Made by a program: the position numbers and the translations under genes
Notes under the pieces: model-generated
What the model saw: only the letters and a program-made list of their open reading frames with translations
Database searches by the model: none
What the model was told of the DNA's origin: nothing
Part shown: in pieces, positions 5,689 through 15,410 of the stretch
Numbering within the stretch: the first letter of the stretch is position 1
How the letters are laid out: each line of letters opens with the position of its first letter
DNA from: an uncultured Candidatus Saccharibacteria bacterium
Lineage (GTDB): Bacteria; Patescibacteriota; Minisyncoccia; Phycocordibacterales; UBA5272
Direction: 5' to 3'
NCBI GenBank assembly: GCA_964516655.1
Contig: CAZEXZ010000001.1
Span: 1-26,591 of the forward strand
DNA: 26,591 nucleotides

Positions 5689-5925
5689 ATGACCAAGAAA
5701 CCAATATCTACCATAAATGCAATAATCCTAGAGCAGAAAACCTTCCAACACCATTCTTCATGCTAGTAACTTGCCGGATACTATGCTTCCAATTAACGGA
5801 GAATCTGTTATTGTTATATTTTAGAAGACATAATAAGTAGAAATATTAAGAGAGTGATTATTCTTATTCGTGAAGTTGATGTACGAACAGAAGAATACGT
5901 GAGGCTTGAATTTCTAAAAAATTGA
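5689..5925 (+). pseudogene. frameshifted N-terminal fragment of a sugar nucleotidyltransferase (NTP_transferase family)
   Basis: Stitched across frames it reads MTKKPISTINAIIL[xAG]KPSNTILHASNLPDTMLPINGESVI[G]YILEDIISRNIKRVIILIRE..., which fits the IILAAG...MLPINGKPVIGYILE start of nucleotidyltransferases. Frame breaks near 5731-5737 and 5813; stop at 5923-5925. Confidence 0.7.
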
Positions 5926-6208
5926 CCTTTGCAATTTTAAGATGGAAGTACTAAAAGGCTCCGAAAGGCTATTCGTTGAAAATCGTATAGATGTTGTAAT
6001 TATAGAATTAGCTACTATTAAAAAATATGAGGGTCAGCAATTATTTTATGAGTTCTTAAATTTTTTTGAAAAAAAGAATTTTATCATTTTTGACTTATAC
6101 CCGTTTTATTATGAGCAAAAGGGACCTTTGACTGAAATTGATGTTGTTTTTGTAAATCGTAACTCAAAGCTGTATAATCATTTATATAATGTCGAAGTTG
6201 CAATATAA
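5911..6208 (+). pseudogene. C-terminal fragment of an FkbM-family methyltransferase
   Basis: ORF 5942..6208 (MEVLKGSERL...IDVVIIEL...FIIFDLYP...EIDVVFVN) matches only the C-terminal part of FkbM proteins. Upstream in-frame KIDLCNFKMEVLKG keeps the spacing of the KIDVQGFExEVLKG motif. The SAM-binding DxGAxxG half is absent. Confidence 0.7.
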
Positions 6209-6812
6209 AGCAATACTTTTTGACTTAGACGGTGTACTAGTAAATATGCCCGACGGTCATTATGAAGCACTCAATAAAACACTTGAGCTTTTTGGTGCAC
6301 ATATTAATGAGGAGGAACATTATAATCATTTTAACGGACTTCCATCAAAGAAAAAAATTGAAGAACTTGAACGACAAGGTAGACTGCCACCAGGACTAAA
6401 GGAATTCATTAATGACATAAAGCAAAATCATACTAAAAGTATTATTCCTAAATATTGTGTACCTGACTATTCTAAAATAATTCTTCTAGGTCATCTTAAG
6501 AGCCAAGGGTACAAACTTGCATGCTGTTCTAATTCAATCAAAGAAACATTACACCTCATGCTTAAATCTGCGAAACTTTTTGATCACTTTGATATTATTT
6601 TAGGAAATGATGAGGTTACTAACTCTAAACCTGATCCTGAGATTTATCTTACCGCATTTAAAAGACTCGGAGTTAAACCTGAGGAATGCATCATAGTTGA
6701 AGACTCCCCTCACGGGATACAAGCAGGAAAAGCTAGTGGTGCAACAGTGTACGAAGTACGAAATGTTAACGATGTAAACCTTTCGTTGTTTGAACATCTT
6801 CTTACCTTATAA
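6189..6812 (+). CDS. HAD-superfamily phosphatase (subfamily IA, beta-PGM-like)
   Basis: Motif I FDLDGVL, motif II CCSNS, motif III SKPDPEIY, motif IV IVEDS. Confidence 0.9.
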   Translation: MSKLQYKAILFDLDGVLVNMPDGHYEALNKTLELFGAHINEEEHYNHFNGLPSKKKIEELERQGRLPPGLKEFINDIKQNHTKSIIPKYCVPDYSKIILLGHLKSQGYKLACCSNSIKETLHLMLKSAKLFDHFDIILGNDEVTNSKPDPEIYLTAFKRLGVKPEECIIVEDSPHGIQAGKASGATVYEVRNVNDVNLSLFEHLLTL

Positions 6813-6822
6813 TTATTGCAAT

Positions 6823-7143
6823 ATGAAAAAATTTAAACTTGAAAATTTTACTCGAGGATGGGTGGTGGGAGATTTTGAGCCAAACATTATTCGCTCAAAA
6901 GATTTTGAGGTGATGGTGCGTTATTACAAAAAAGGAGACAAGGAGGCACAGCATGTGCACAAACTTGCTGATGAAATAACTATTATTGTAAGTGGTAAAT
7001 TCTTAATGAACGGTGAGTATTTAGAAGCGGGAGATATCATCCATCTTTCGCCGAATGACCCAACTGATTTTGAATGTCTTGAAGATGGTGCAAATACAGT
7101 TATTAAGACACCTTCAGTTATGGGGGATAAATACCTCATATAA
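6823..7143 (+). CDS. small cupin-domain protein
   Basis: HVHKLADE (HxHx4E metal motif), ITIIVSGK, GDIIHLSP. Start moved from TTG 6790 to ATG 6823 (MKKFKLENFTRGWVVGDFEP). Confidence 0.8.
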   Translation: MKKFKLENFTRGWVVGDFEPNIIRSKDFEVMVRYYKKGDKEAQHVHKLADEITIIVSGKFLMNGEYLEAGDIIHLSPNDPTDFECLEDGANTVIKTPSVMGDKYLI

Positions 7144-7180
7144 GAACTAGGGATCAGGAGCAATCTACTACTTAAATAAA

Positions 7181-8041
7181 CTAATTACACAAACCTTTCA
7201 CATAATCTGGGTAATCAGTACATATTGCATCAGGGGCACATGAAACAATGTCATTAAAACGAAGAGAGAGAGCCTCAAAAGACGTGGCACTAGGGTGTGC
7301 CTCACCACCTAAAAGACCTGGAGAGGTCCCATGTAACTCTGGAGTAACTAGACCGACCCAAAGACCATGAGACCGGAATAGATTAACCAGTTCCTTTGTA
7401 TAGAATTTTTTAACCCCTTCGTTTTCATCCTGTAAGTCCCATTCGTCTAACCAAACACCATTAAACAACTCACGATTACGCAGCACATCATTTACTGTAA
7501 GAAGTGTTCCGCCAACCACATCATTAAAACGATTAATATCGTACCGATGTGCTACTGAAGGTGCGAGTTGAAGTTTTCGGTTCCTTTCTTTTAGATATTT
7601 TGCTGTTTCCACTGTTGTGTCAAAAATAAAAAAATATGTAGGATCTATATTTTCTAAATATGAGAGCAGGATATCTAGGTCTTCTTTATTTTGATTGTCA
7701 CTTTTTAAATGTAATGCTGATACCGCACCCGGGGCTTGCTGTTCTTGAATGAGTGAGAGCAAAATATCTAATGTTGTAAAGTGAGAACCATCTACTGTAA
7801 TTTTTAAAATTTCAGATGCCGTAACATCTATTATCTCTCTTCGGTCACCATTTTTTGTAATACGACTTAGGCTTTTATCATGCATAATAACCATCTTTCT
7901 ATCTTTTGTTTTTCGTACATCAAATTCAAGACCGTACCCTCGCGCTAACTGATCTTTAAAAGCCTCTATGGAACTTTCTGCAAAATACCCTTCTTTTGTT
8001 GGATCAAGTCCACGGTGTGTTATTACTTGAATTGAATTCAT
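7181..8041 (-). CDS. glycerophosphodiester phosphodiesterase (GDPD)-like protein
   Basis: ITHRG...ESSIEAF...GYGLEFDVRKTKD.KMVIMHD..L.RIT, and C-terminal AICTDYP. Confidence 0.85.
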   Translation of the reverse strand: MNSIQVITHRGLDPTKEGYFAESSIEAFKDQLARGYGLEFDVRKTKDRKMVIMHDKSLSRITKNGDRREIIDVTASEILKITVDGSHFTTLDILLSLIQEQQAPGAVSALHLKSDNQNKEDLDILLSYLENIDPTYFFIFDTTVETAKYLKERNRKLQLAPSVAHRYDINRFNDVVGGTLLTVNDVLRNRELFNGVWLDEWDLQDENEGVKKFYTKELVNLFRSHGLWVGLVTPELHGTSPGLLGGEAHPSATSFEALSLRFNDIVSCAPDAICTDYPDYVKGLCN

Positions 8042-8047
8042 GAATAA

Positions 8048-8056
8048 ATACTATCA
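8048..8056 (-). promoter_or_regulatory. putative extended -10 element (TGATAGTAT), leaderless geometry
   Basis: 6 nt between the -10 hexamer and the ATG at 8041, so the predicted start site falls at or next to the ATG. Confidence 0.5.
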
Positions 8057-8126
8057 CAGAACTAAACCGCCAACCTACTTGAATTCATTTTTGTTATAGG
8101 GTAGTCTGGGTTAATATATACTCTAT

Positions 8127-8954
8127 ATGAAAATTATTATTCCAATGGCTGGCCTTGGATCACGCTTCCAAAAGGCATCTGACACTAACCCTGAGTATAA
8201 AAAACCAAAACCATTTATTCTTGTTAATGGCATCCCTATGGTCAGGTGGGCAACTGGAGCACTCCCTTTTATCGAACACCCTGGACAGCACATAGACTCC
8301 CCTCTTCGTGTTACCCCTTCAGATATGATTTTTATTATTCTTAAAGAGCACAATGATGCTTATAACCTAGAGGACGGTTTAAGAAAAATATACTCAGATG
8401 CGATACGGGTAATTATCTTACCTTCACTTACACGCGGAGCTTCAGAAACAGCATATAACATGAAACCGTTTGTGAATGACGACGAAGATATTATCATTAC
8501 AGATTCAGATCATTACTTTGATGGTTCCATTTTAGAACGCGAAATTATTAATCACAAAAATTCTGAGACAGCTGGAATTATTCCTGTCTTCACTGCACCA
8601 TCTGACGGTATCCCTAGATGGAGCTACTCTCTCATTAAAAGTGATTCAACTCGTATCCTAGAGACACGAGAAAAAAGTAAAGAATTAATGGAAGCTGGAG
8701 CTCACGCAAACATCGGTGCATATTATTTTTCAAAGGCAAAATATTTCTTTGAACAATTTGAAAAAGTTGCTCGAGAAAATAAAATGTTTGGGGAGGAAGG
8801 TAAAAAGGAGTTCTATATTGCACCGCTCTACCAAGAAATGATTGAAGATGGAAAGCAGGTACATGCCGCACTTTTACCAAATGTCTGGGGACTTGGTACT
8901 CCAGCTGATCTAGAGTATTTTCTTGCAAACTACGATAAGAAGATGCCATACTAA
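8127..8954 (+). CDS. nucleotidyltransferase-fold (GT-A-like) protein, paralog 1
   Basis: IIIPMAGLGSRF...PKPFILVNGIPM, ITDSD, RWSY, GAYYF, EFYIAPLYQEMI, GLGTPADL. Confidence 0.8.
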   Translation: MKIIIPMAGLGSRFQKASDTNPEYKKPKPFILVNGIPMVRWATGALPFIEHPGQHIDSPLRVTPSDMIFIILKEHNDAYNLEDGLRKIYSDAIRVIILPSLTRGASETAYNMKPFVNDDEDIIITDSDHYFDGSILEREIINHKNSETAGIIPVFTAPSDGIPRWSYSLIKSDSTRILETREKSKELMEAGAHANIGAYYFSKAKYFFEQFEKVARENKMFGEEGKKEFYIAPLYQEMIEDGKQVHAALLPNVWGLGTPADLEYFLANYDKKMPY

Positions 8955-8958
8955 AATA

Positions 8959-9711
8959 ATGGGGAAAAACGCACAGCATGTATTAAAAATAGTAATACCG
9001 ATGGCAGGTGGTGGAAGAAAGTTTGTGGAAGCTGGATATGCTTTCCCAAAGCCACTCATAGACATTAACGGTAAGACAATGATTGAGCTTGTAACTCATA
9101 ATGTAAAACCGAAAGAAACTCATTCATTTGTGTTTATTTGCCAACATGAGCACTATACAAAATACGACCTTCATAATGTCTTAAAGCGAGCGACAAACAA
9201 CCAATTTGAGGTTGTACCAATTATGGGTAAAACTTCTGGAGCAGCTTGTACAGTCCTATGTGGTATACAACATATCAATAATGATGATGAACTCATCATT
9301 GCTAACTCTGACCAAATTATTACTTTTGACATGGACGCTTTTTTGGCACACGCGCGATCAAAAAATGCTGACGGACTCATAATGACCTTCTCCTCTAATC
9401 ATCCAAAATGGAGTTATGCGCGTACAAACAAAAATGGTCAAGTGCTTGAAACTGCTGAAAAAAAAGTAATATCAGGGAATGCGACAGCTGGTATTTATTA
9501 TTTTAAAAAAGGTAAAGATTTTGTTCGAGCTGCACAAGAGATGATCCATAAAGGATGCCACTATGACAATGAATACTATGTCTGCCCCTCATTTAATGAG
9601 CTCATCCTCGAGGGTAAGAAAATATTTATTTATGAAATTGATTCAAAAAATATGCACGGGCTTGGTACCCCGGAAGAAGTGAAGGACTATTTGTCAAACG
9701 AACAGAAATAA
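8959..9711 (+). CDS. nucleotidyltransferase-fold (GT-A-like) protein, paralog 2
   Basis: IVIPMAGGGRKF..AGYAFPKPLIDINGKTM, IANSDQ, KWSY, AGIYYF, EYYVCPSFNELI, GLGTPEEV. Start moved to ATG 8959, 4 nt after the previous stop. Confidence 0.8.
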   Translation: MGKNAQHVLKIVIPMAGGGRKFVEAGYAFPKPLIDINGKTMIELVTHNVKPKETHSFVFICQHEHYTKYDLHNVLKRATNNQFEVVPIMGKTSGAACTVLCGIQHINNDDELIIANSDQIITFDMDAFLAHARSKNADGLIMTFSSNHPKWSYARTNKNGQVLETAEKKVISGNATAGIYYFKKGKDFVRAAQEMIHKGCHYDNEYYVCPSFNELILEGKKIFIYEIDSKNMHGLGTPEEVKDYLSNEQK

Positions 9712-9759
9712 CTCAAGGTTAATTATTGACTCGTAATTTAGACAAGATTAATCCAGTAC

Positions 9760-10743
9760 ATGTATAAAAAAATACTAAAACTTATTCGAATTATAACAGA
9801 GAAAACTACTGGGTATGTTAGTTTTTCTCATACTCGTCCCCTGTTTGAAAAAGATTATAATCTTTACTCTGACGAAACACTGCAACATGAAAGAATAGGT
9901 GTAGTTATTCAGGGCCCGATTATTACACACAATGATTTCACTCTAGAAACTGTCAAAATATACAAAAAAACTTTTGGAGAAAAAACTCAATTACTCATTT
10001 CAACATGGGCAGGAGAAGATTCGTTGACAATAAAAAAACTAAGAGACCTTGGTGTCATAGTTCTTGAAAATGAGAAGCCAAAACTACCTGGTATAAAAAA
10101 TATAAATTTTCAAATCGTTTCTTCAAGAAACGGAATACAGAAAGCAAAGTCTCTTGGAGTAAACTATATATTAAAGACTCGCACCGATCAGCGAATGTAT
10201 GCACCTAATATTCCAGATTTTCTTTCAACGCTCATAGAAACATTTCCTCTTACACACTCCTACAAACAAGAAAAAAGGATTATTGCAATTAGTTTAAATA
10301 CCTACAAATATAGGCCATATAGCATATCTGATATGACACTCTTTGGAACTACTCATGATATGGAGTTGTACTTTAGTCCAGAAGAAGACACTCGAACTAC
10401 ACCACATTTCCATAACATAAAAAGCTGGTCAGAAGACAGACTTTGCGAAGTATATCTTTCTACAACCTACCTTGAAAAAATAGGGAGGAAACTCACATTT
10501 ACGCTAGAAGATTCATGGAAAGTCTTTGCAGAACACTTCTGTATTATTGATTCACAGATGATTGATATTTTTTGGTATAAGTATGAATACTGGAAGGAAT
10601 ACCACGATCTTACCTATGAAACGATGAAGAATGATCAAGAATTGAACTTTAGAGAGTGGCTACTTCTCTACTCCGCACTGCCAAACAAAGCCACAATCCC
10701 AGAATCAATCATTGAAGGTCAGTTTGGTACGACTATTTCTTAA
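9760..10743 (+). CDS. WavE lipopolysaccharide-synthesis family protein (putative transferase)
   Basis: IGVVIQGPI, LISTW, NINFQIVSSRNGIQKAK, YILKTRTDQR, YSISD motifs of the WavE family. Confidence 0.75.
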   Translation: MYKKILKLIRIITEKTTGYVSFSHTRPLFEKDYNLYSDETLQHERIGVVIQGPIITHNDFTLETVKIYKKTFGEKTQLLISTWAGEDSLTIKKLRDLGVIVLENEKPKLPGIKNINFQIVSSRNGIQKAKSLGVNYILKTRTDQRMYAPNIPDFLSTLIETFPLTHSYKQEKRIIAISLNTYKYRPYSISDMTLFGTTHDMELYFSPEEDTRTTPHFHNIKSWSEDRLCEVYLSTTYLEKIGRKLTFTLEDSWKVFAEHFCIIDSQMIDIFWYKYEYWKEYHDLTYETMKNDQELNFREWLLLYSALPNKATIPESIIEGQFGTTIS

Positions 10744-11575
10744 GTAGTTTTTTAATCGTAAACCAAATATAGCGAACATAATAGTTATCTTGAAATGTTC
10801 TATGTGCTTTTAGTCGTATCCAGCCATCAACAAAAATATCATTATTTGTTACTCTACACATCGGCAAAAACCAAGACTTAGGAATGATAATTCTTTTATC
10901 TTTATGCTTGCTAAGGTAAGCAGCCCACCAGCTAAATGTTGACGGCGAACATACGATATCTTTACAAAGTGACATAAGGTACAAATCTTCATAATCTTTA
11001 TTCCCATCAATAAATACGACATTGTCCCCGATTTCACCTAGATATTTTTTCGCTAACGAAATATCTTCTGAGAAGACTAAAACTGTTCCTGATGGCTTTA
11101 GTATTTTTAATGCATTTTTAAAGTATGTAGGTGTTGGGGCATAAAACATAAGAGAAGGATGAAGATAGTCTCCGAGGCGAACATGAAGTGCACACGCGGT
11201 ATCAAAATTAATATATTTATATTTTTCTTGTACGTCTACAAACATAGCCTCATTAAACAAAAACCACGAGCTGACATCTTCTTTACTAAAGTATGCAGGA
11301 CTTTGAAAATACCCTGAGATCTCTGTATTATCTTGAATTCTCACCGCATCCTCGTTAAATCCGTGAGTATGAGAACCTTCAACAAACATGTGCAACGGGG
11401 AAAATATTTGGCACTTAACCTCTTTATCACGGAGGGAGAAAATAGTATCCCCTCCCCACTCTGGAACATAAAAATTGACCCCAAGCCTCTTTGCCTGTGA
11501 CCTCACGAATGCGTATTGAAACATCTGGTTACCTAATCGAGCACCAGTTTTGCCTAGAGTACTAAAGGAAATCAT
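10733..11575 (-). CDS. alpha-1,2-fucosyltransferase (GT11)
   Basis: RLGNQMFQYA, GYFQS, ALHVRLGDY, DLYLMSLCKDIVCSPSTFSWWAAYL. Confidence 0.88.
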   Translation of the reverse strand: MISFSTLGKTGARLGNQMFQYAFVRSQAKRLGVNFYVPEWGGDTIFSLRDKEVKCQIFSPLHMFVEGSHTHGFNEDAVRIQDNTEISGYFQSPAYFSKEDVSSWFLFNEAMFVDVQEKYKYINFDTACALHVRLGDYLHPSLMFYAPTPTYFKNALKILKPSGTVLVFSEDISLAKKYLGEIGDNVVFIDGNKDYEDLYLMSLCKDIVCSPSTFSWWAAYLSKHKDKRIIIPKSWFLPMCRVTNNDIFVDGWIRLKAHRTFQDNYYVRYIWFTIKKLLKK

Positions 11576-11585
11576 TATGGAGTAC

Positions 11586-11591
11586 AGTATA
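11586..11591 (-). promoter_or_regulatory. putative -10 element (TATACT)
   Basis: 10 nt upstream of the ATG at 11575. Confidence 0.4.
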
Positions 11592-11621
11592 TATGAAAAT
11601 CTTACATAAATTAACTGAGTA

Positions 11622-11630
11622 TGCTACCAT
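11622..11630 (+). promoter_or_regulatory. putative extended -10 element (TGCTACCAT)
   Basis: 14 nt upstream of the ATG at 11645. Confidence 0.4.
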
Positions 11631-11644
11631 CTTACTAGCGTACC

Positions 11645-12589
11645 ATGAACCAAAAATTAGATATTAACTTAAGAATACGAAAACTCCTTTTCCCTTTAAA
11701 AGTGAGGACGACACATGTTTGGGTGCGGTGGCTTAAAAGGTTCCTAACAAGAAAACTTACCTTGCATCGCCCAAGTACATACCCTTTTATTTCTGGAGAC
11801 GCATTCAGAGTTTTAGCTAAGCATATTCACGACGAATCTGCGACATTTGACCCACTAGCAGTTGACGATGGTGATATAGTCTTTTTAAATACTGACTTCT
11901 ATAAAGAATTTTTTGAAACTAAGCACCCTTATATTAAAAATAAGTACGTGCTGATTTCTCACAATAGTGATGTCTGTGTTTCAAAAGAGTTAGAAAAGTA
12001 TATTGACGAAAAAATTCTACATTGGTTTTCCAGAAATGTTACTACATCGCACAGCAAGATAACCCCCATTCCAATCGGCCTCATCAATAGTGCATCAAAT
12101 AGAATCGGGAAGCTCTCAGATTTAATCAGGCTGATAATGTCTACTAAAAATATAAAAAAACAACCTGGTATTTCTTTTGGTTTTTCACTTGTGAGTGGGA
12201 AAGACAGAGTAAAAGTACAAACCATCCTCAAAAACCATAAGCTCGGAAAACATATTTTGGAATACAATCAAGCTCGTTACTTCGCCATGATGAACACTTA
12301 TTCATTCGTAGCTTCACCTGAAGGAAATGGTCCAGACTGTCACAGAACCTGGGAAGCGCTCTACTTACAATGTATCCCAATTGTTCCAAAAAGCACTTTT
12401 ATAGAGTATTTTGTCTCTCTTGGTATTCCAATCTACATAATTGAAAATTGGGATGCTCTTACCTCATTTGATGAGCACTTTTTAGAAAAAACGTACTCAG
12501 AGATGTCTCTTTCATTTAAACACCCAGCGCTCTATATGGATTATTGGATTGAGCGCATCCAAAACGAATGCCAAAATGCATTTAAATAA
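11645..12589 (+). CDS. exostosin-like (GT47-related) protein
   Basis: C-terminal FVASPEGNGPDCHRTWEALYLQCIPIV motif; N-terminal ISGDAFR and LISHNSD segments. Confidence 0.7.
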   Translation: MNQKLDINLRIRKLLFPLKVRTTHVWVRWLKRFLTRKLTLHRPSTYPFISGDAFRVLAKHIHDESATFDPLAVDDGDIVFLNTDFYKEFFETKHPYIKNKYVLISHNSDVCVSKELEKYIDEKILHWFSRNVTTSHSKITPIPIGLINSASNRIGKLSDLIRLIMSTKNIKKQPGISFGFSLVSGKDRVKVQTILKNHKLGKHILEYNQARYFAMMNTYSFVASPEGNGPDCHRTWEALYLQCIPIVPKSTFIEYFVSLGIPIYIIENWDALTSFDEHFLEKTYSEMSLSFKHPALYMDYWIERIQNECQNAFK

Positions 12590-12608
12590 AAGATCTTTTT
12601 AGGCACTT

Positions 12609-13391
12609 TTATTTACTAAAAATAAATTTATTGTATTCTCCTGTCAAAGGTCTTTCTGTCTCAAAAATATAATCTTCCTTATTAAGAAAATCAATTTCGT
12701 ATGATTTAAAGAAAAAGAATTTTTTAGGCTGAGTAAGATAATTCCAAATAAAAAATTTCTTATCACAGTTAACAATTAGTTTGGTGAAGTATTCCTCTTG
12801 ATTCTCTCTTCCTATTTCTGAAATACAATAATTAGATATCACAAGATCAAATGTCTCACCCGCAAGTGAATCAAGTGTAGTTCCGGGTATGCTTTTTGCA
12901 TGTTCTAACCCAGTCACCTGAATAAACTTATTCTGAAGTGCACTTGGCTCTGGTAAATCAACGATTGTATAATCAATGTCGTATTCCTTAAAGATTTTCT
13001 TTATGTAAAGACATAATCCGCCGTAGCCACCACCCACTTCAACAATTCTTATCTTCTTCTTATCTTTAAACCATACATCACATTTGCTTTTAATAAGAAG
13101 AGCATGATAGATATATCTCAAATTTGATGGTGACATCATAATGCCATCAAAATCAAACTTAATAGGGTTCCCAATTGAATCATTGAGCGTACTAATTTCT
13201 ATGAAATTCTTCGGATCTTCATTAAACTCATCTTTGATAGCAGCTTTATACTTATCCCCAAACGCTTTGTCGGTATGTTCCAAAATATCCATAAATGCTG
13301 AACTGCTCTTAAAATTTTCAAACACAGAACTATCACTTTCTAAGTTTTTTAAAGATTCCGTATATTTCACATAAATATCGTCTGTTTTCAT
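12609..13391 (-). CDS. putative sugar O-methyltransferase (SAM-dependent)
   Basis: SNLRY, IVEVGGGYGGL, YTIVDLPEPSALQ, FDLVISNYCISEI. Confidence 0.8.
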   Translation of the reverse strand: MKTDDIYVKYTESLKNLESDSSVFENFKSSSAFMDILEHTDKAFGDKYKAAIKDEFNEDPKNFIEISTLNDSIGNPIKFDFDGIMMSPSNLRYIYHALLIKSKCDVWFKDKKKIRIVEVGGGYGGLCLYIKKIFKEYDIDYTIVDLPEPSALQNKFIQVTGLEHAKSIPGTTLDSLAGETFDLVISNYCISEIGRENQEEYFTKLIVNCDKKFFIWNYLTQPKKFFFFKSYEIDFLNKEDYIFETERPLTGEYNKFIFSK

Positions 13392-13424
13392 TGTTATTTA
13401 TCAATTAAGCACAACCCATAAAGT

Positions 13425-13430
13425 ATTATA
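13425..13430 (-). promoter_or_regulatory. putative -10 element (perfect TATAAT)
   Basis: 33 nt upstream of the ATG at 13391; no clear -35. Confidence 0.35.
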
Positions 13431-13481
13431 TACATAATAATATCATAGAAATTTTTTAATATACACTTACAAAGTATCAAT

Positions 13482-13510
13482 TTTACAAAAGAGCAAAAGT
13501 ACGTTACTCT
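13482..13510 (+). promoter_or_regulatory. putative sigma70 promoter TTTACA-17-TACTCT
   Basis: -35 at 13482-13487, 17 nt spacer, -10 at 13505-13510, 11 nt before ATG 13522. Confidence 0.45.
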
Positions 13511-13521
13511 AAATAAACTAC

Positions 13522-14448
13522 ATGGAACGATACAATAAGAAAACAATGAGTATTCATTCAAAAGAATACGATAACCTGCTTCAGAAAGAAATTGATGTTT
13601 GGAGCACATACAGACACGGTGAGACACATGTAGTTGATTTCGAAGCACTTAAGAAAACGCACGCCTATCTAACTTACAGGAAAGGTACAGTGGAGTTAGA
13701 ATTACAGTTTATAAAAGATTTGGGTGAAGAAATATCCGTTCTTGAACTTGGAAGCGCAGACGGATGGCTTACGAATGAAATACTAAACTTTCCATCAGTT
13801 AAAACTGTGACCTCTATCGATATTTCGTTAGAAAATAACAAAGAGAAGTATAGTGAGAAGAGTATCGCAATCCGTGGTGATCTAAATAAAGTGGACGAAA
13901 TACAATTTGATCAACAGTATGACTGCATCATTACCCATGGAACACTTCATCATCTTGTTGACCCTCGCAAAACACTCCAATTTTGTGTAGACAACCTTCT
14001 AAAAAAGGGAGGTATTCTTATAGTAAACGATACTTGGACATTAGAAAAAGGCCAGCTCACTGTGAACGCTTTTTTTTACCTGTTACTTAATCGTTTACCT
14101 CATGCTATCTTAGACCTTAATTTTAAAAATTTCTTTTCAATCATTTTCTATAAAATACCTATGGTTCTTTGGAGTAAAGACTATGCGGCCTACATAACAC
14201 ACGCACACGAAACTTCTCCATTTGAATCAATATCGTCTGCAGATGATTACAAAGATTTATACTCTAAAGAAGAACTCCATATGCTTCATTTCCAAAATCT
14301 AGCTGCATTACCTGGATTACAAAATAGCTGGATGAGATCCCCTCTTTTTATTAAAAACTTTATTCAAAAAATTGATACTTTTTTAATTAAAAAAAATATT
14401 CTTTCTGGTGACTACCATATAGCAATTCTAAAAAAAATAAACAACTAA
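13522..14448 (+). CDS. class I SAM-dependent methyltransferase
   Basis: VLELGSADGWL, TSIDIS, RGDL, YDCIITHGTLHHLVDP, LKKGGILIVND. Confidence 0.82.
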   Translation: MERYNKKTMSIHSKEYDNLLQKEIDVWSTYRHGETHVVDFEALKKTHAYLTYRKGTVELELQFIKDLGEEISVLELGSADGWLTNEILNFPSVKTVTSIDISLENNKEKYSEKSIAIRGDLNKVDEIQFDQQYDCIITHGTLHHLVDPRKTLQFCVDNLLKKGGILIVNDTWTLEKGQLTVNAFFYLLLNRLPHAILDLNFKNFFSIIFYKIPMVLWSKDYAAYITHAHETSPFESISSADDYKDLYSKEELHMLHFQNLAALPGLQNSWMRSPLFIKNFIQKIDTFLIKKNILSGDYHIAILKKINN

Positions 14449-15410
14449 AGAATTCTGGTGAGAGAGTGATCAGCCTCAACATCCATCTGATCTACACTGC
14501 TGTACTCAAAATCCTTGAGTCTAAAATTAACCCAATCTCCAAAATACGGCCTTTCGTGTGAGACTAAACCTGCAAGTGCACTGACCCCCGCCCCGATATC
14601 GATAAAAACAGCGTTGGATTTAGTTGTGAAGCTGTGCATTACCGCCAGTTTAGCTATACCAATTCCAACTAAGTAGATATCAATATCATCCTTAATATGA
14701 CTTAGAATATGTTCTTCTAATTTCTTAACATCATTTGATGAGCCTCGCTCTGGAACCGTTATATAATCCTGAAAAGCATCTCGTCCAATATATTCTCGGT
14801 ACTCTTTAAATTCAAGTAATTTTTTAATAATTTCAATTTTATTATCTGCACCTATTATCCCAATTCTAAACTTATTTTTTAAAATTTTTTTTGAAGAGAT
14901 TAAAGCGTAAATACATTCGAATGGAATCTCTGAAAATATATTTTTTTTGTAGAGATTAAAAAAATTACTTTGATATTTTTTGTACATCTCTATGTGAATT
15001 GAGTCACATTGCGTCAAACCGTTCTTAAATAGATCAAGATTAATATCGTGCAAAGACTTACTCTTTGTAAAATGTCGTAATGGACCATTACCTACTAATT
15101 TCCCTTTTAGAAAAAAATATTCACCGTCTGAAACTCGAATAATTGTATATGGTTTCTTTTTTTCAATTTTATCAATAATCATGTGATACAAATGCTCGTA
15201 ATACTCTACGATTGGCACTTTCAGGTGTATCATTTTACCTGCCCTAAATTGTGGCTCGAGACTAATATCAGTACAACCTTCTATGTTGAGAAATTGATTT
15301 TTATAACTCTCAAATTTTTTCTTAGAATAGTAGATACCAATACATGTTTCCTTGTATTTTATAAGCTGTCGTTTTATTTTTTTTAGTAAAAATAGCAATA
15401 CTTCAAACAT
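14445..15410 (-). CDS. putative GT-D-fold (DUF1792-like) glycosyltransferase
   Basis: IIRVSDGE resembles the GT-D RFGDGE motif; IYLVGIGIAKLAV...AVFIDIGA resembles the LIALGPTAKVL...AIDIGH motif. Confidence 0.6.
   Translation of the reverse strand: MFEVLLFLLKKIKRQLIKYKETCIGIYYSKKKFESYKNQFLNIEGCTDISLEPQFRAGKMIHLKVPIVEYYEHLYHMIIDKIEKKKPYTIIRVSDGEYFFLKGKLVGNGPLRHFTKSKSLHDINLDLFKNGLTQCDSIHIEMYKKYQSNFFNLYKKNIFSEIPFECIYALISSKKILKNKFRIGIIGADNKIEIIKKLLEFKEYREYIGRDAFQDYITVPERGSSNDVKKLEEHILSHIKDDIDIYLVGIGIAKLAVMHSFTTKSNAVFIDIGAGVSALAGLVSHERPYFGDWVNFRLKDFEYSSVDQMDVEADHSLTRIL

Follow-up and report, generated by a model that had tools for sequence, protein, structure and literature searches.

The 26,591-nucleotide stretch analyzed here (the window; positions 1 to 26,591 of contig CAZEXZ010000001.1, GenBank assembly GCA_964516655.1) comes from an uncultured “Candidatus Saccharibacteria” bacterium. 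It carries six adjacent genes, encoding a HAD hydrolase, a cupin, a GDPD-like protein, two paralogous nucleotidyltransferases (NT1 and NT2), and a WavE-family protein (Table 1). An earlier inspection of the sequence (the original prediction) had proposed that these genes activate and transfer an unusual ketose or polyol-phosphate. The contig is 45.9 kb long, with the window as its initial 26.6 kb, and belongs to an assembly of 654 kb that is 70% complete; sampled relatives have genomes of 0.5 to 1.1 Mb at ~100% completeness, and the closest protein homologs come from metagenome-assembled genomes of Patescibacteria. The host is accordingly a bacterium of the CPR type with a small genome. Profile searches of its open reading frames (ORFs) identified the entire window as a surface-glycan locus, encoding a Wzy_C-domain protein (O-antigen ligase/polymerase family), a Wzx-type flippase, several glycosyltransferases and methyltransferases, Gmd, a GDP-fucose-synthase-like protein, and two GT11 fucosyltransferases.

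Table 1. Features of the six-gene cassette at positions 6189 to 10743 of the window
Feature	Coordinates	Strand	Basis
HAD-IA hydrolase, beta-phosphoglucomutase-like group, 207 aa	6189..6812	+	PF13419 132 bits
Small single-domain cupin, 106 aa	6823..7143	+	HxHx4E...H metal motif
GDPD-family phosphodiesterase-like protein, 286 aa, cytoplasmic	7181..8041	-	PF03009 51 bits
NT1, divergent GT-A-fold nucleotidyltransferase, 275 aa	8127..8954	+	PDB 4EVW match, NT2 paralogy
NT2, nucleotidyltransferase, 250 aa	8959..9711	+	PF00483 51.9 bits
WavE-family protein, 327 aa	9760..10743	+	PF07507 36.7 bits

All six ORFs are present and uninterrupted at 6189 to 10743. The genes lie side by side, as the original prediction had it, but they do not form a single operon, because the GDPD-like gene is on the minus strand. 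Homolog alignments indicate that the cupin most likely starts at the ATG at 6823 (106 aa) rather than at the ORF-opening TTG at 6790, and that NT2 most likely starts at the ATG at 8959 (250 aa) rather than at the TTG at 8923, the latter choice being favored also by alignment with PDB entry 4EVW. L020, the locus most closely related, has the genes on a single strand as HAD-cupin-NT1-NT2-GDPD-WavE (GDPD at 11585 to 12445), unlike the window, where the inverted GDPD gene (7181 to 8041) sits between the cupin and NT1 genes. Repeats, including inverted repeats, and promoter-like and terminator-like sites in the flanks of the inverted gene were at chance level only.

The six genes are a real recurrent cassette and not a chance neighborhood. 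A profile of NT1 retrieved 80 genome loci, 36 of them patescibacterial, and the ORFs of the retrieved loci were sorted by phmmer, BLAST clustering, and jackhmmer. NT1 and NT2 are neighbors, in either order, in nearly all 36 patescibacterial loci, a HAD resembling beta-phosphoglucomutase (beta-PGM) is encoded in 32, and a GDPD-like gene is present in nearly all once the divergent 210- to 230-aa forms recovered by iterated search are counted. The 106-aa cupin occurs in half to about two thirds (18 distinct loci, or 19 with one weak match), and an inositol-monophosphatase/fructose-bisphosphatase-family gene in 10. The conserved core thus consists of the beta-PGM-like HAD, the paralogous NT pair, and the GDPD-like protein, with the 106-aa cupin and WavE as common accessories. 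The claim of a recurrent module is borne out by this neighborhood analysis, which found the families together in the 36 patescibacterial loci and also in Campylobacterales, so that the module is not confined to Patescibacteria.

The distribution of the cassette is patchy. NT1 shares 55 to 79% identity with homologs in many, distant Patescibacteria, yet of 400 other genomes sampled across the phylum only 1 yielded it, and none of those sampled from the genus, family, or order of the source bacterium did. Such rarity, high identity, and patchy spread point to horizontal transfer of the cassette and, more broadly, to a surface-glycan decoration passed among host-attached bacteria.

NT1 and NT2 are paralogs of 30% identity (hhalign probability of 100%, E value of 2e-53). 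Both contain the motifs IPMAGxG, PKP, WSY, and GLGTP noted originally, and both retain the hallmarks of sugar-1-phosphate nucleotidyltransferases, namely, the GxGxR/K...PK nucleotide loop, the acidic residues, and the E-K motif. NT2 matches PF00483 at 51.9 bits (gathering score, 21.2), and its G17, P30, K31, D118, E167, and K168 are invariant. NT1 has no Pfam match and carries an insertion at about residues 44 to 66; its GxGxR, KPKP, DSD, and EK motifs are nevertheless invariant (G9, G11, R13, K26, P27, K28, D126, D128, E182, and K183). Neither protein is an ordinary glucose-1-phosphate or heptose-1-phosphate enzyme, a point on which the original prediction held up. No equivalog cutoff was reached by either for RmlA, GalU, GlmU, ManC, IspD, or HddC, and the NCBIfam cutoffs were never approached, the best equivalog scores of NT2 being 43 bits (cutoff, 292) and 37 bits (cutoff, 320) and NT1 having none. 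The best solved relative of both is PDB 4EVW (E values of 8e-25 for NT2 and 3.5e-11 for NT1), a structural genomics entry from Vibrio cholerae RC9 titled “nucleoside-diphosphate-sugar pyrophosphorylase,” which shares the PMAG...WS[YF]...EK...YIAP motifs with the NTs and whose title names no substrate. Prediction of an NT1-NT2 complex gave a score of 0.02, which is uninformative either way with regard to a heterodimer.

A known parallel in logic is the heptose-nucleotide pathway (GmhA, HddA/HldE, GmhB, and HddC/HldC), in which isomerization is followed by repositioning of phosphate involving a HAD enzyme and by a GT-A nucleotidyltransferase. The cassette differs in lacking a SIS isomerase, a kinase, and a GmhB-type HAD, and its NTs are not HddC/HldC equivalogs.

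The HAD protein exceeds the cutoff of the general HAD-IA model TIGR01509 (72.3 bits; cutoff, 29.4), scores 110.5 bits with the subfamily model TIGR02009, below the cutoff of 153, and has as best PDB matches the putative beta-PGM 3E58 and the sugar phosphatase TM1254. It is a candidate sugar-phosphate mutase or phosphatase. The cupin contains the HxHx4E motif reported originally, plus a later His, and belongs to a family conserved elsewhere at 50 to 81% identity; it is a candidate isomerase or epimerase of a sugar or sugar phosphate. In one locus (L008), HAD and cupin form one fused gene, and in another (L029), a His_Phos_1-cupin fusion takes the place of the HAD. The HAD and His_Phos_1 families each include phosphatases and phosphomutases, and the fusions tie a phosphatase or mutase step to the cupin.

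Searches of four genomes with the module recovered no alpha-phosphohexomutase of family PF02878 (GlmM, ManB, and Pgm) from three of them (the source genome, G000, and those of loci L004 [G001] and L003 [G002]), a gap that a HAD mutase would fill. One of these three genomes is a single 1.2-Mb contig, and all three encode RmlA-like and other nucleotidyltransferases. The same negative result also speaks for a rival reading in which the cassette supplies an ordinary nucleoside diphosphate (NDP)-sugar in a reduced genome. Here the cupin would be a phosphomannose or phosphoglucose isomerase, the phosphomutase would be the HAD, and the NTs would serve as the pyrophosphorylase, making, e.g., GDP-mannose for the GDP-fucose genes of the window. 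There is precedent for cupins as isomerases and for HADs as mutases, and the window combines Gmd, the GDP-fucose-synthase-like gene, and the two GT11 fucosyltransferases with no recognizable ManC, although at 70% genome completeness the failure to detect ManC means little. We consider such a supply role very unlikely: the rarity of NT1 across the phylum and its absence from sampled genomes of the same genus, family, and order contrast with the need of all these organisms for NDP-sugars, a Gmd ortholog lies within 10 kb of the module in only 8 of the 36 loci, the GDPD-like and WavE proteins would be left without a role, and Campylobacter jejuni carries the cassette (see below) despite having the ordinary pathways.

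The WavE protein matches PF07507 at 36.7 bits (gathering score, 27; 36.5 bits in the search of its own genome) and has no sequence match in the PDB. Its AlphaFold model (pLDDT, 91.6) resembles many GT-A enzymes, with Z scores of 10 to 13 over about 175 to 220 residues, led by B4GALNT1 (13.3), WrtF (12.3), and SpsA (11.9), and the top Foldseek matches are all GT-A. Residues K139, R141, D143, D191, and E230 are invariant; a canonical DxD motif is not obvious, and the conserved motif is instead K-x-R-x-D. The GT-A glycosyltransferase core of the model makes the proposed role of WavE as the transferase reasonable, and WavE is a candidate for transfer of the module product. Literature searches failed to turn up an open-access paper about wavE, and the matches listed included none from V. 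cholerae.

The GDPD-like protein has a well-predicted GDPD TIM barrel (pLDDT, 94.7), with TM scores of 0.64 to 0.69 to GlpQ-type structures. Across 26 homologs, H9, R10, E39, H54, and D55 are invariant and D41 is nearly so. The PF03009 match (51.1 bits against 23.6) covers residues 17 to 160 only. The protein is a candidate either for supplying a phosphomonoester or for transferring sugar phosphate from an NDP-sugar.

If the protein supplies a phosphomonoester, the product could be a polyol-phosphate decoration, e.g., glycerol-phosphate: the GDPD-like enzyme would free sn-glycerol-3-phosphate from scavenged glycerophosphodiesters, an NT would make CDP-glycerol, and a transferase would add glycerol phosphate to the glycan. 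Bacteria with small genomes scavenge lipids, the catalytic set is intact in a gene found in nearly every module locus, the nearest folds are those of GlpQ-type enzymes, which liberate glycerol-3-phosphate, and the NT2 family shows weak IspD/TarI-like matches. This explanation gives no role to the HAD, the cupin, their fusion, or the second NT, however, and in its C-terminal half the GDPD-like protein diverges from canonical GDPDs, as the extent of the Pfam match shows. Furthermore, the E. coli loci with NT2-like genes are not glycerol-phosphate capsules, and strain CFT073, whose capsule locus is a genuine K2, carries a TagD-like gene there but nothing NT2-like. On balance, a polyol-phosphate product is quite unlikely.

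Precedent for the second role comes from two GDPD-derived enzymes, AvrBs2, which forms a sugar phosphodiester from UDP-galactose with release of UMP, and agrocinopine synthase, a synthetase of sugar phosphodiesters (PMC12807533). Members of this clade share with the window protein the GDPD fold and the canonical His/Glu/Asp/His set, and their action on NDP-sugars provides a model for a GDPD-family partner of a nucleotidyltransferase. The GDPD-like protein could accordingly be the true transferase, moving sugar-1-phosphate from an NDP-sugar into a phosphodiester link with release of a nucleoside monophosphate, and WavE, where present, would add a further sugar. Such a phosphodiester decoration would fit the far greater constancy of the GDPD-like gene than of WavE in the module, and the protein keeps the canonical catalytic residues that AvrBs2 requires. 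The window protein, however, falls far short of the NCBIfam model of the AvrBs2 clade (NF041304, 24 bits against a cutoff of 1000, with only the common N-terminal GDPD motif matched; the clade has in addition a motif of its own, R544/D547 in AvrBs2), is short and cytoplasmic, and has hydrolases as its nearest folds. We regard this alternative as unlikely; it differs from the best explanation, in which WavE transfers the sugar, only in the identity of the main transferase. The cassette suggests a possible new role for a GDPD-family enzyme in glycan assembly.

Outside Patescibacteria, a lone NT2-like gene always adjoins genes for a ~130-aa class-III HAD and a ~520-aa NT-like/APH-type kinase protein, and the triad is often trailed by a WavE-like gene. 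The small HAD belongs to TIGR01689, “capsule biosynthesis phosphatase” (the E. coli homolog scores 202 bits), a model that was not among the best 25 of 37 NCBIfam matches of the window HAD. The triad also occurs in E. coli group 2 capsule loci, including the K4 kfo region (L091), where region 2 encodes a small HAD of 126 aa and KfoE of 522 aa, followed downstream by a 241-aa NT. Deletion of kfoE yields unfructosylated chondroitin (PMC7925653). The deletion arms (PMC7925653, Supplementary Table 3) map to L091 at 9332 to 9366 and 10945 to 10980 and bracket the 522-aa gene (9374 to 10942), one lying just before it and the other beginning 3 bp past it, where the following gene, which overlaps, starts. 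The genetic evidence of fructose loss in K4 concerns kfoE only, and none was found for the adjoining NT. That NT has 29% identity to NT2 (E value of 9e-28) and matches NT1 with an E value of 3e-16, and the profile of the KfoE N-terminal domain matches the NT2 family as a distant member (hhalign probability of 95%, E value of 3e-8).

In K4 as in the window, a glycan locus thus encodes two NT-like domains alongside a HAD enzyme, and WavE-like genes accompany both cassette types. They differ in that K4 has an APH-type kinase fused to an NT-like domain and a class-III EcbF/BcbF-type HAD (TIGR01689), with no cupin and no GDPD, whereas the window combines a cupin and a GDPD-like protein with a beta-PGM-like HAD of class IA and has no kinase. 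Profile searches of the window showed no KfoE-type NT-kinase fusion, and a KfoE-like query found none in the 70%-complete source genome. The proposed similarity to the K4 kfo region holds for the NT family homology and the presence of a HAD, but not for a cupin or for the HAD subfamily. Genes resembling wavE and NT2 are neighbors in 10 of the 36 patescibacterial loci, in 7 loci of other bacteria, and in 1 E. coli capsule locus. The capsule locus of E. coli KP63 (L090) has at 9394 to 10764 a WavE-like gene annotated as a 456-aa “hypothetical protein” (jackhmmer E value of 1e-35), just upstream of an NT/HAD/KfoE-like triad and beside a gene for a Bcs3-like multidomain polymerase. In K4, KfoD and KfoB have no detectable likeness to WavE by BLAST. 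The E. coli locus L088 was rejected as an example of a K2 (galactose-glycerol-phosphate) capsule that would speak for CDP-glycerol, since the K2 strain CFT073 lacks the triad.

Following the KfoE-like protein led to C. jejuni capsule contigs (L094 and L095) that carry, in one row, genes for a GDPD-like protein of 213 aa, a HAD of 212 aa, an NT of 241 aa, a SnoaL-like protein, a cupin of 108 aa, and an NT-methyltransferase of 619 aa. The families and their order are those of the window core, and the original suggestion of a comparison with Campylobacter capsules was rewarded: the cassette core is present in a C. jejuni capsule locus at 37 to 50% identity, the closest relative in a culturable organism. 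Identity to the window proteins is 50% for the cupin, 46% for the HAD, and 37% for the NT compared with NT2 (37 to 43% for the NTs overall), and the 213-aa GDPD-like protein belongs to the same subfamily as the window protein (hhalign probability of 99.8%). The C. jejuni set differs in its SnoaL-like gene, in the fusion of the second NT to a methyltransferase, and in the lack of a recognized WavE, and it lies directly beside a complete KfoE triad and genes of the O-methyl phosphoramidate (MeOPN) type. No paper characterizing the C. jejuni cassette genes was found. A search of 301 sampled Campylobacterales genomes recovered orthologs of the cupin from 9, and two complete Campylobacterales chromosomes have the arrangement HAD-NT-...-cupin-NT. 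The C. jejuni homologs open the chemistry to bench work, the results of which would carry back to uncultured lineages.

In C. jejuni HS:1, a TagD-type enzyme and HS1.08 are used. The HS:19 (sorbose) cluster, in the available part of its description (PMC13276843), comprises 13 genes only, with no kinase, nucleotidyltransferase, or cupin genes shown. Among the contigs assigned to a Campylobacterales genome of 1.8 Mb, one (L101; G620 contig C10; 11.5 kb, GC content of 35%) encodes counterparts of the window proteins (cupin, 81% identity; NT2, 64%; GDPD, 58%; WavE, 38%), and it represents either a recent cross-phylum transfer or a misbinned patescibacterial contig.

Taken together, these observations are best explained if the cassette is a self-contained, horizontally mobile unit within a Wzx/Wzy-type surface-glycan locus that makes an NDP-activated nonstandard sugar and then transfers it to the glycan, a reading to which we assign a probability of about 0.65. 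The sugar activation originally proposed is consistent with the recurrence of the module, the unusual NTs, the GT-A core of WavE, and part of the K4 link; a ketose or polyol-phosphate is at most a candidate for the product. Under this reading, the cupin would isomerize or epimerize a common sugar phosphate. The HAD would then either reposition the phosphate as a mutase, providing an anomeric phosphate without ATP, or trim it as a phosphatase. NT1 and NT2 would join the sugar phosphate to a nucleotide to give the NDP-sugar, and WavE would attach the sugar as a side group of the growing glycan. The GDPD-like protein may move sugar-1-phosphate from the NDP-sugar into a phosphodiester link or may supply or edit a phosphodiester. 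As a mutase, the HAD would stand in for both the kinase and the phosphatase of the KfoE cassette and spare ATP.

Several points weigh against this reading or limit it. All of these steps and their order are inferred from sequence, structural models, and gene neighborhood. The GDPD-like gene is opposite in strand to the other five genes in the window, and WavE, the putative transferase, is found in only about one third of the 36 patescibacterial loci and is absent from about two thirds, so it is not obligatory. The HAD scores 97.7 bits with the beta-PGM equivalog model TIGR01990, below the cutoff of 189.4, and is equally like beta-PGM and plain sugar phosphatases, while the cupin falls under the Cupin_2 cutoff (17.7 bits; cutoff, 27.2) and its chemistry is not readable from sequence. 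The tie to fructose spans 25 to 30% identity, the same distance that separates paralog pairs with presumably different substrates. Finally, in C. jejuni a complete KfoE cassette adjoins this one, so that their products probably differ.

Among single candidates for the sugar, a ketofuranose such as fructose ranks first because of the tie of the NT family to the E. coli K4 kfoE cassette, but this assignment is tentative and rather doubtful. More specific, and in our view improbable, is an ATP-sparing, kinase-free route common to Patescibacteria and Campylobacter capsules, in which a new phosphomutase of the HAD type (in one genome, of the His-phosphatase type) would move a 6-phosphate to the anomeric position, the NT pair would form the NDP-sugar, and a GDPD-derived enzyme would install the product as a phosphodiester, the sugar being a ketofuranose or another sugar without a known donor. 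The cassette is a differently built second member of the kfoE-type enzyme family and represents a known but unsolved kind of sugar activation. In bacteria, kfoE is the sole genetic handle on the activation of fructofuranose and related labile sugars for capsules and lipopolysaccharide.

Some further features of the window and of related loci were observed. Two other pathways combining such enzymes were considered and dropped: methionine salvage (HAD enolase-phosphatase plus acireductone dioxygenase cupin), as no acireductone dioxygenase family match was present among window ORFs of ≥80 aa, and phosphonate synthesis, as the same ORFs gave no phosphoenolpyruvate mutase family match. The gap at positions 5689 to 6208, which follows a 282-aa ORF, contains decayed coding fragments that look like a pseudogenized remnant. 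One is a short NT-like N terminus (“...INAIILEQK...”) in one frame, and the other is a C-terminal fragment, 88 aa long, of a methyltransferase of the FkbM type (Methyltransf_21, E value of 0.004); the end of this fragment overlaps the start of the HAD gene.

In two Magasanikbacteria loci (L006 and L007), the module WavE is directly followed, at 10990 to 14840, by a split transketolase-like pair, an SDR gene, and a DegT aminotransferase gene, a combination that recalls pathways to branched or amino sugars. On the contig that holds the window, 25 kb downstream at ~35.4 to 38.0 kb (L093, 9450 to 12022, minus strand), lies a second pair of NT2-like paralogs of 270 and 295 aa (E values of 5e-27 and 1e-33 to NT2), with a 254-aa gene between the two members. 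This pair adjoins a PMT_2 (ArnT-like GT-C) gene and a GT2 gene, and a comparable set of NT, GtrA, and PMT_2 genes is found near the module in locus L002. The theme of paired NTs thus recurs, probably for a different substrate.

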